Shown one piece after another: positions 41,486 through 42,907 of a stretch of 64,000 nucleotides of DNA. The stretch spans positions 6,651-70,650 of IMG/VR virus record IMGVR_UViG_3300020112_000486. The stretch is one strand, 5' to 3'. This stretch comes from a virus (Duplodnaviria > Caudoviricetes). Each line of letters begins with the position of its first letter. The first letter of the stretch is position 1. The translations under genes and the position numbers were made by a program. The notes under the pieces are model-generated. The model made no database searches. It was not told where the DNA came from and worked only from the letters and a program-made list of their open reading frames with translations.

Positions 41486-41854
41486 ATGAATAATCTTTTT
41501 GAACAGTACATTAAGAATGCCTGCCGTTTTGTTAACGAAGGCTTAGAAGATGAACTCCCAGCTGAAGCTCCAGCCGAACTTCCTGCTGAAGGTGGTGAAG
41601 AACTTCCTGCTGAAGGTGAAGAAGAACTCCCTGCTGAAGGTGAAGACGCTGAATGCGAAGAATCTATGGAAGATCTTAAGGCACAGATTGCTGACCTTCA
41701 GGGTCAGGTCACAGAATTGCTTGAACTTGTCCAGTCATTGACAGGCGAAGCTGCTGAAGGTGCTGATGATCTTGCTGGTGAAGACGAACTTCCTGCCGAA
41801 GGCGGTGAAGAACTCGAAGGCGAAGATCCTGCCTTCGAAGACGAAGACATGTAA
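41486..41854 (+). CDS. Acidic prohead-core-like protein with ELPAE(G) repeats
   Basis: MNNLFEQYI..FVNE, repeated ELPAE, central coiled coil. Confidence 0.55.
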   Translation: MNNLFEQYIKNACRFVNEGLEDELPAEAPAELPAEGGEELPAEGEEELPAEGEDAECEESMEDLKAQIADLQGQVTELLELVQSLTGEAAEGADDLAGEDELPAEGGEELEGEDPAFEDEDM

Positions 41855-41886
41855 TTTTCAGTTTTCACGAGAAAGGCTATACATAG

Positions 41887-41916
41887 GCTAGGGAAATAAA
41901 ATTCCCTAGCTTTTTT
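41887..41916 (+). terminator. Intrinsic terminator
   Basis: GCTAGGGAA-ATAAAA-TTCCCTAGC + T-run. Confidence 0.85.
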
Positions 41917-41957
41917 ATGTCTAAAAAATGATTATATTTGATACTGTAAAATTATTA

Positions 41958-42240
41958 AGCCGTTTCCTCGGAACGAAACTCAACCCAATGACGCTGTCGG
42001 TAGAGGGACGCCATTTGAGCTAGAATTGCTTAGCTCGTGAATAGAAATGCAAATGCAATAGCGAAGTGGAAACTAGCCCTTTCCACACATAGCCGCCAAT
42101 AGCATTATGGGATGTAGCCGGAATACAGGTTGACCGCTCCGTAAGCCCATAAGTGAGTCTACTTACAACGTCATACGGTTCACCAGTCAAAACAAAGACT
42201 CGGAATTTCTGACGGTAAGCTCTACCGGGCTTACTGTCTC
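41958..42240 (+). ncRNA. Putative structured non-coding RNA, class unknown
   Basis: No + strand ORF in the track; many complementary segments, including long-range and pseudoknot pairings (see findings). Confidence 0.55.
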
Positions 42241-42289
42241 CGGTTACCATATCAAACAAAGAATAAATAATAAAAAGGAATTGTTTGAT

Positions 42290-42907
42290 ATGGGAATTAA
42301 ATCAATTTGGGATAACACATTTTATCAAAAACCACCATTACCAAAGTGGTGTTTTGAAGTTGTGTTTGAATCATTATTTAAGAATCATCCTCAGTATGCG
42401 ACAACATTAAACCATGCTATTATAAATTGCCAGTGGGGCAAAAGAGAAATAAGCATCGTTAAAACTTATTATGCTGGCATTGAGGCAAACTATCCTGGCC
42501 GTGTTCAAAATACAGGTGAACTTAATTTAACTTTTAATGAAAATACTGGTATGGAAGTTTCTCGTATTCTTGAGGAACTTTTCAACGGTGAATGTTCTAA
42601 TGACCGTTATTTTGATGATAAGAGCCGTGATAGAGGATACATTTACAATAAAGACTTTACAAAAATCGGGCGAAACATTACTTTAAGAATTTATCGTCCT
42701 GATGTTAATATGGAAATGAACCAGGATGGTGCTGAGGCTGTATGCGGCGAGGTTACATTTTATAACTGTATTTTAACATCAATCAATGAAGAAGAATTTA
42801 GCTATGAAAGCGTTGATGATACAGTTACACGTACCGCAAGATTTTCATATGATTATATGATTGATAATCGTAAGAAATTTTCTGGCCGCCCAATGAATGG
42901 AGGTTAA
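42290..42907 (+). CDS. Tail-tube-fold baseplate protein (gp19/gp54-like paralog)
   Basis: P...WCFEVVF, YYAGIEANYPGR...GELNLTFNE, YNCILTSI..FSYES...FSYDY. Confidence 0.6.
   Translation: MGIKSIWDNTFYQKPPLPKWCFEVVFESLFKNHPQYATTLNHAIINCQWGKREISIVKTYYAGIEANYPGRVQNTGELNLTFNENTGMEVSRILEELFNGECSNDRYFDDKSRDRGYIYNKDFTKIGRNITLRIYRPDVNMEMNQDGAEAVCGEVTFYNCILTSINEEEFSYESVDDTVTRTARFSYDYMIDNRKKFSGRPMNGG

Follow-up and report, generated by a model that had tools for sequence, protein, structure and literature searches.

The gap in front of a tail-tube-like gene of a giant T4-like gut phage holds what is almost certainly a gene for an enlarged cow-rumen-2 RNA. The gap ends at the ATG at position 42290 of the 64,000-nt stretch of DNA that we analysed (the window), and the sole above-threshold Rfam match in a scan of the whole window lies within it: RF02947 (cow-rumen-2), at 42060-42165 on the plus strand, with 105.6 bits (gathering score 66), an E value of 2e-19 and coverage of model positions 1-106. 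An earlier description of this DNA, made from its letters alone (the sequence-only reading), had proposed a compact, pseudoknotted non-coding RNA of unknown class at 41958-42240. The class can now be named: the Rfam scan which that reading had suggested finds a full-length RF02947 member covering the middle third of its region. The rest of this description stands, as the RNA lies on the plus strand, folds better than shuffled sequences, is conserved in 45 clusters of relatives and has a core pseudoknot that covaries.

The sequence-only reading could not match the region to tRNA, tmRNA, RNase P or intron cores, and our searches agree. The window contains no tRNA, and neither models nor detectors returned a match for self-cleaving ribozymes, RNase P, tmRNA, tRNA, group I or II introns, pRNA, ROOL or GOLLD; at E<=1, Rfam gave besides cow-rumen-2 one chance-level sRNA match (17 bits against a cut-off of 128).

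Weinberg et al. 2017 reportedly included cow-rumen-2 among their 224 candidates, and to our knowledge it has stood for years as a 106-nt orphan motif with neither an organism nor a function assigned to it. It is listed as RF02947 in the Rfam 15 paper (PMC11701678), and in the literature we found no description of the enlarged form or of its function.

Setting and fold of the locus

The locus is framed by the following features:

41885-41912, plus strand: intrinsic-terminator-like hairpin, an 11-pair stem with 5 G-C pairs followed by a T run, which ends the upstream acidic-protein gene
41933-41940, plus strand: promoter-like box TATATTTG
41945-42262, plus strand: whole conserved RNA, about 300-320 nt, with ends deduced from conservation
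42290-42907, plus strand: tail-tube-like gene, with matches to phrog_45 and phrog_4542

The open reading frame 5' of the RNA (window positions 41486-41854) encodes a highly acidic protein of 122 amino acids with a repeated E-L-P-A-E-G-type unit, has a GC content of up to 0.51 and is without a PHROG match. The sequence-only reading had placed its RNA, about 280 nt, between a terminator and a late promoter, and candidates for both are present: the terminator-like hairpin at 41885-41912 and, at 42262-42269, a box matching TATAAATA at 7 of 8 positions. Its remark that the region is richer in GC than the flanks holds on the downstream side (0.47 for 41980-42259 versus 0.31-0.37) but not upstream, where the acidic reading frame is higher. 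All the pairing motifs that it listed are present in the sequence where it placed them. The comparison of folding energy with shuffled sequences, also its suggestion, gives a minimum free energy (MFE) of -84.2 kcal/mol for the plus strand of 41958-42240 (z -2.95, equalled by 0 of 200 shuffles); the minus strand folds with a z of -1.88.

The window contains 22 exact copies of TATAAATA where 4.8 are expected, and 20 of them lie on the plus strand, an enrichment consistent with T4-type late promoters across the window's structural-gene block. The window's capsid protein is gp23-like, with about 31% identity to capsid proteins of T4-like cyanophages, and this and the TATAAATA enrichment together identify the source as a T4-like jumbo phage. 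The virus record that holds the window is 70.6 kb long and was judged 21% complete.

Relatives of the RNA

Relatives were gathered with a degenerate core pattern, which returned 40 loci in IMG/VR, 11 on large gut-MAG contigs and 102 in metagenomes, the last mainly from ruminant gut. Clustering at 93% identity sorts the 107 distinct extended sequences into 45 groups; most come from ruminant-gut samples, and a large part of them lie on contigs of jumbo phages. The earlier reading had named homologue collection and covariation as a further check, and in this collection the core, the pseudoknot PK1 and the 5' arm all covary.

Two complete terminal-repeat genomes of 415,750 and 424,163 bp carry four copies of the RNA each, all above the Rfam cut-off, and a 248-kb genome carries one. 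Among nine fragments with a related capsid (MCP) gene, six have an RNA match at E<=0.001, five of these above the Rfam cut-off. A blastn search of the RNA region against deposited phage genomes gave no match, and no relatives of the tail-tube protein were found in viral contigs.

Large contigs assigned to bacterial or archaeal MAGs hold one or two RNA copies apiece. On one of them, of 266 kb (JAZLKX010000052.1), there are two (loci L042 and L043), and over 5 kb L043 shares 94.7% identity with the window. Seven further loci (L044-L049 and L052) place the phage RNA on contigs labelled as Methanobrevibacter MAGs, two of them of 173-191 kb. These bacterial and archaeal MAG contigs look like mis-binned jumbo-phage contigs. 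One core match came from a non-gut source, a 65-kb contig of an activated-sludge metagenome (L104).

Extent of the RNA and its promoter-like box

Across the 45 clusters, conservation begins at about 41945-41955 and runs to about 42262, far outside the Rfam model; nucleotide similarity to loci L017, L027 and L032, the nearest relatives, begins at 41948. The RNA therefore does not stop at 42240, where the sequence-only reading had ended it.

The box upstream fits the Bacteroidota -7 consensus, TAnnTTTG (PMC7366714), and also a generic TAnnnT -10. At a fixed position 5' of the RNA, TTATATTTG is 70-90% conserved in the 45 clusters. As a genome-wide promoter signal TAnnTTTG was rejected: it occurs 63 times in the window against 77 expected, and in the absence of enrichment the box counts only by its fixed position 5' of the RNA. 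Since it also fits a generic -10, both its promoter function and the host are things that we infer. At 15 of 42 loci the nearest upstream reading frame is divergent, so that at those loci the RNA needs a promoter of its own, and we consider it quite likely that the RNA has one.

An antisense reading frame was considered and rejected. The minus strand is often open, over 77 codons in the window, but L017 keeps only 45, and both L017 and L027 depart from the window by indels of 1-2 nt; such indels among close relatives rule out a reading frame. That the RNA lies on the plus strand follows from its G-U pairs and from the orientation of the Rfam match.

Core and pseudoknots

The core is made up of the following elements, to which a pseudoknot and a candidate pseudoknot are added:

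42060-42165, plus strand: cow-rumen-2 core, full-length RF02947
42066-72 with 42080-86, plus strand: core hairpin of RF02947
within 42060-42165, plus strand: single-stranded core segment AUAGCCGCCA
42100-03 with 42157-61 and 42105-11 with 42146-52, plus strand: core stems of RF02947
42119-23 with 42138-41, plus strand: inner hairpin of the RF02947 core
42061-63 with 42135-37, plus strand: pseudoknot PK1 (G42061-C42137, C42062-G42136, G42063-C42135)
42128-33 (GGUUGA) with 42221-26 (UCUACC, the loop of the 3' hairpin), plus strand: candidate loop-loop pseudoknot PK2

In the 45 clusters, 92.5% of the cells at core pairs are paired, versus 65.7% after shuffling, and 21 of the 25 pairs have changed on both sides; the covariation score is 0.739, versus 0.219 for shuffled alignments and at most 0.139 with the partners slid. 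The core has 34 invariant columns, including GCCG.CA, AU.UAGC.GG, UACAGG.UGACC and CC.UAAG, and many of its invariant bases sit at formally unpaired positions.

The sequence-only reading had chosen other pseudoknots, and the well-supported one, PK1, is absent from it. PK1 is paired in 98.5% of cases, its three pairs being UA (26), GC (12), AU (6) and GU (1); CG (32), UA (11) and UG (2); and GC (43). PK2 stays a candidate. The identity of its variable core base follows that of the partner in the 3' hairpin loop, with A-U in most clusters, G-C in L078, L141 and L154, U-A in the window, L017 and L027, and eight exceptions; complementarity of at least 5 pairs is found in 89% of cases versus 37% of controls, with an ambiguous register. 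RNAalifold also suggests a pairing of AGCC (42091-94) with GGCU (42228-31), which we set aside because both strands are invariant.

5' arm and variable hairpin

The 5' part of the RNA contains these elements:

41959-42012, plus strand: 5' arm of type A, which folds on itself into four helices, P0-P3
41959-63 with 42008-12, plus strand: P0, with 4.27 of 6 pairs formed versus 3.01 +/- 0.17 in shuffles
41965-69 with 42003-07, plus strand: P1, within the covarying 5' arm
41974-78 with 41994-99, plus strand: P2, within the covarying 5' arm
41980-82 with 41989-91, plus strand: P3, closed by the conserved loop AACCCAAU
42017-42036, plus strand: variable hairpin GAGCUA/UAGCUC, an expansion site

For P1-P3, 94.4% of the cells are paired versus 84.2% after shuffling, and the covariation score of 0.336 (versus 0.153) was reached in 0 of 500 shuffles. 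Loci that share this core carry 5' arms of at least three unrelated types: type B occurs at L147, L060, L067, L069, L081, L086, L101 and L128, and type C at L148 and L061. The type B arm holds GGUCUUCCUAAAGG, an echo of the UUCCU loop of the 3' hairpin. L120 (2471-2901) and L137 have an insertion of about 90 nt at the site equivalent to 42017-36.

Three helices of the sequence-only reading are upheld by compensatory changes: GAGCTA/TAGCTC, replaced by GGGTA/TACCC in L017 and L027; GTGGAAA/TTTCCAC, 96.8% paired in nine relatives with both sides changed in 6 of 7 pairs; and TTATGGG/CCCATAA, 93.5% paired in the nine with both sides changed in 7 of 7. The two closing stems on which its fold depends, and its crossing helix, were rejected on the same nine relatives, in which the 5' arm is folded on itself. 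The closing stem AGCCGT/ACGGTT is 83% paired, shows no compensatory change and competes with the covarying P0; the adjacent closing stem ATGACGCTG/CAACGTCAT is 61.7% paired, its inner pairs broken in 4-7 of the 9 sequences; and the crossing helix GAGTCT/AGACTC is 53.7% paired. The loop pseudoknot that it drew between CTCTACCGG and TCGGTAGAG (41997-42005) is 75% paired and was matched by 14-26 of 500 shuffles. The single-sequence nearest-neighbour MFE fold, which includes these closing stems, reaches -101.8 kcal/mol, and the nested fold supported by covariation -82.5 kcal/mol.

3' tail and twin repeat

Beyond the core, the tail contains two near copies of one segment, X and X', and two hairpins:

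42170-98, plus strand: twin X, the segment after the core
42183-88 with 42197-203, plus strand: hairpin P-x, with purine loop AAAACAAA
42201-42242, plus strand: 3' hairpin, GACGGUAAG (42211-19) with CUUACUGUC (42230-38), which may extend to CGGA/UCCG
42236-62, plus strand: twin X', near copy of X after the 3' hairpin

The P-x stem covaries (CCAGUC/GACU-GG, CAGCAG/CUGCUG, CACC/GGUG and AUGU/ACAU). In the 3' hairpin, the 3' strand GGCUUAYUGUCUC is near-invariant in the family; the variants seen are a change from G-U to A-U in L120 and GGAGA/UCUCC in L141, L154 and L078. This hairpin had been drawn in the sequence-only reading and is compatible with the alignment, being 84.4% paired in nine relatives of the subfamily, but its changes are one-sided only. 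In the same nine, its strand 42211-19 can pair instead with 42162-72 (82.7%); the two tail folds lie about 4 kcal/mol apart, and the alternative helix was matched by 55 of 500 shuffles. RNAalifold proved unreliable on raw MAFFT alignments of the tail, because the architectures of the subfamilies differ.

Every subfamily has an X/X' pair with a sequence of its own, X and X' being about 70% alike. Aligned with its own X', X scores 17.2 on average (39 clusters; 22 in the window) versus 11.8 +/- 2.7 across loci. Each twin starts with GUC directly after a helix, and two hairpins have near-identical purine loops. A search of the window with the reverse complement of 42183-99, for a trans target of the X loop, gave no convincing second site. 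At loci of the L003 type (e.g. L003, L105, L150, L005 and L002) there is a conserved AACGUGUG beyond the twin, some 20 nt downstream of GUCUC, and that of L105 can pair with CAUAUG of the downstream start.

The ribozyme, RNP scaffold and virion RNA put forward in the sequence-only reading stay conjectures, and the tail and core bear on three alternatives to a binding RNA. The RNA might be a self-cleaving or processing ribozyme, with cleavage or processing at the two GUC-led twin segments freeing the 3' hairpin or defining the 3' end. The GUC after each helix, the many invariant bases at unpaired core positions and the lack of a terminator of the RNA's own in the window would suit this. However, at E<=1 there is no match to any ribozyme family, the sequence gives no hint of a specific cleavage chemistry, and the twin is compatible with other readings, so that we hold a ribozyme to be highly unlikely.

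Scarcely credible is an element acting at the DNA level, such as a replication origin or recombination cassette, with an incidental RNA fold. Dispersed copies, up to four per genome, a locus-specific direct repeat and the joining of one core to at least three unrelated arms, which suggests modular exchange, could be read in this way; the compensatory changes and the G-U pairs on one strand show instead that selection acts on the RNA fold, and twins only about 70% alike make a poor substrate for recombination.

Very unlikely, in our judgement, is an RNA that assembles with itself or into the virion by intermolecular loop-loop contacts, be it an RNA-only multimer like ROOL and GOLLD or a packaging or structural RNA like the pRNA of phi29. 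PK2 tracks its variable base and could form between molecules, the purine loops of two hairpins are near-identical, the locus lies among structural genes, and the phage-associated ROOL forms a cage (PMC13622246). Against this, no pRNA, ROOL or GOLLD model matches, and the register of PK2 is ambiguous. Moreover, we know of no requirement for RNA in T4-type terminases or packaging.

A probable start-site mask at the tail-tube gene

The end of the RNA runs into a further hairpin, just outside the region of the sequence-only reading:

42247-59 with 42281-93, plus strand: putative mask hairpin, 13 perfect pairs, with its 5' strand in X'

Its loop holds AATAAATA (42262-69, the 7/8 match to TATAAATA) and AAAGGA (42274-79), and its 3' strand contains the ATG at 42290. 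The hairpin has a folding energy of -15.9 kcal/mol (z -5.05), equalled by 0 of 200 shuffles. Equivalent hairpins have 9 pairs in L017 and 10 each in L027 and L120, that of L120 involving codons 5-8 and not the start region.

In the leader hairpins of T4 gene e and I-TevI a late promoter lies in the loop, and the start region is masked in upstream-initiated transcripts (PMC3014915). The same layout is found here, with the 5' strand upstream of the TATAAATA-type box, that box in the loop and the start codon within the 3' strand. Given this likeness, only upstream-initiated transcripts would be masked. We thus propose that the hairpin at 42247-42293 is probably a start-site mask. A coupling of the tail switch to the mask was rejected, as the mask forms in both modelled folds.

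Neighbouring genes and proposed function

In a crude survey of the nearest open reading frame on each side (41 loci downstream, 42 upstream), the downstream gene is co-oriented with the RNA at 34 of 41 loci, in many cases only tens of bases away, and convergent at 7, where terminator-like hairpins follow X'. The neighbours include genes for baseplate hub, tail tube, GroEL, lysins and SbcC-like proteins, with no constant protein partner.

These counts bear on whether the RNA is a cis leader, a riboswitch-like sensor whose core would sense a ligand or protein, reset the 3' tail and time the downstream late gene. The co-oriented and close downstream gene also suits such a leader, the tail merges into a start-masking hairpin, and strand 42211-19 has two partners in folds of similar pairing and energy. 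However, the constant leader position and coherent gene set of a riboswitch or cis leader are not seen in the survey: at 7 of 41 loci the gene is convergent and terminators follow the RNA, and the downstream families differ and are unrelated. Furthermore, the switch does not reach the mask, which is present in both conformations, the alternative helix is no better than shuffles, and the putative mask is seen only at those tail-tube loci that were checked. We therefore regard a cis leader as unlikely, and a leader of one particular gene as less likely than a trans-acting binder. A bolder version, which seems to us clearly improbable, would make these RNAs gene-specific phage riboregulators: a doubly knotted sensor core would read a cellular or phage signal, a bistable tail, with the twins as its alternative partners, would set the timing of the late structural gene next to the RNA, and a genome would hold up to four such sensors, each tuned to its locus.

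In the account that we favour, and think probable on the sequence evidence, the locus is a free-standing gene for a structured RNA, about 300-320 nt long, whose core binds in trans and whose tail doubles as a read-through mask. The RNA would be transcribed from its own conserved box, probably by the host polymerase, before the late genes are switched on, and its knotted core would act in trans by binding a protein or a small ligand. For the role of trans-acting binder taken by itself our confidence is lower, and we offer it tentatively. Since the RNA has no terminator in the window, its transcript would read through into the tail-tube gene; X' would then pair with the start region and keep the read-through RNA untranslated, and translation would be left to late transcripts that start inside the mask loop, as in T4 gene e. 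The twin repeat is not accounted for by the trans-binder reading. The locus offers defined helices, a pseudoknot, a putative regulatory hairpin and ends drawn from conservation, which do not themselves reveal the function.

Comparison with known systems

The RNA is a further conserved, phage-associated structured RNA besides ROOL and GOLLD. ROOL is described as large, phage-associated, unexplained and GOLLD-like (PMC5737381), and the RNA described here shares with both a large, conserved, multi-helix structure, a bacterial or phage association and an unexplained function. It differs from them in having no sequence or model similarity to either, in being about half their size or less, and in its position, which is not adjacent to tRNA genes but between structural genes of lytic T4-like phages.

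The pRNA of phi29 is a phage-encoded structured RNA with covarying loop-loop contacts, located beside structural and packaging genes. Our RNA is likewise phage-encoded, structured and beside structural genes; its loop-loop pairing is a candidate only, and the phi29 family gives no Rfam match here.

The putative mask differs from the hairpins of T4 gene e and I-TevI in that the gene concerned encodes a tail-tube-like protein and the late box matches at 7 of 8 positions. In addition, the strand that would do the masking forms the final element of a structured RNA gene and has its duplicate, twin X, inside that RNA. The 3' end of the RNA appears linked to T4-style masking of the translation of a late structural gene.

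With the cow-rumen-2 model the RNA shares the UAGC-loop hairpin, the long interrupted stem and the inner hairpin, as well as the invariant strings AGCCGCCA, GAUGUAGCCGG, ACAGGNUGACC and CCGUAAG. The model's structure line lacks PK1, which is present here, and pairs 42122 with 42138, whereas the covarying pair is 42123-42138, with A42122 bulged. The 106 nt of the model account for the middle third of the conserved RNA, which measures about 300 nt and also has the 5' arm, variable hairpin and 3' tail, so that the known motif is only the core of a larger knotted RNA with a promoter-like box. It can now be placed in T4-like jumbo phages of the ruminant gut, with up to four paralogous copies per genome.
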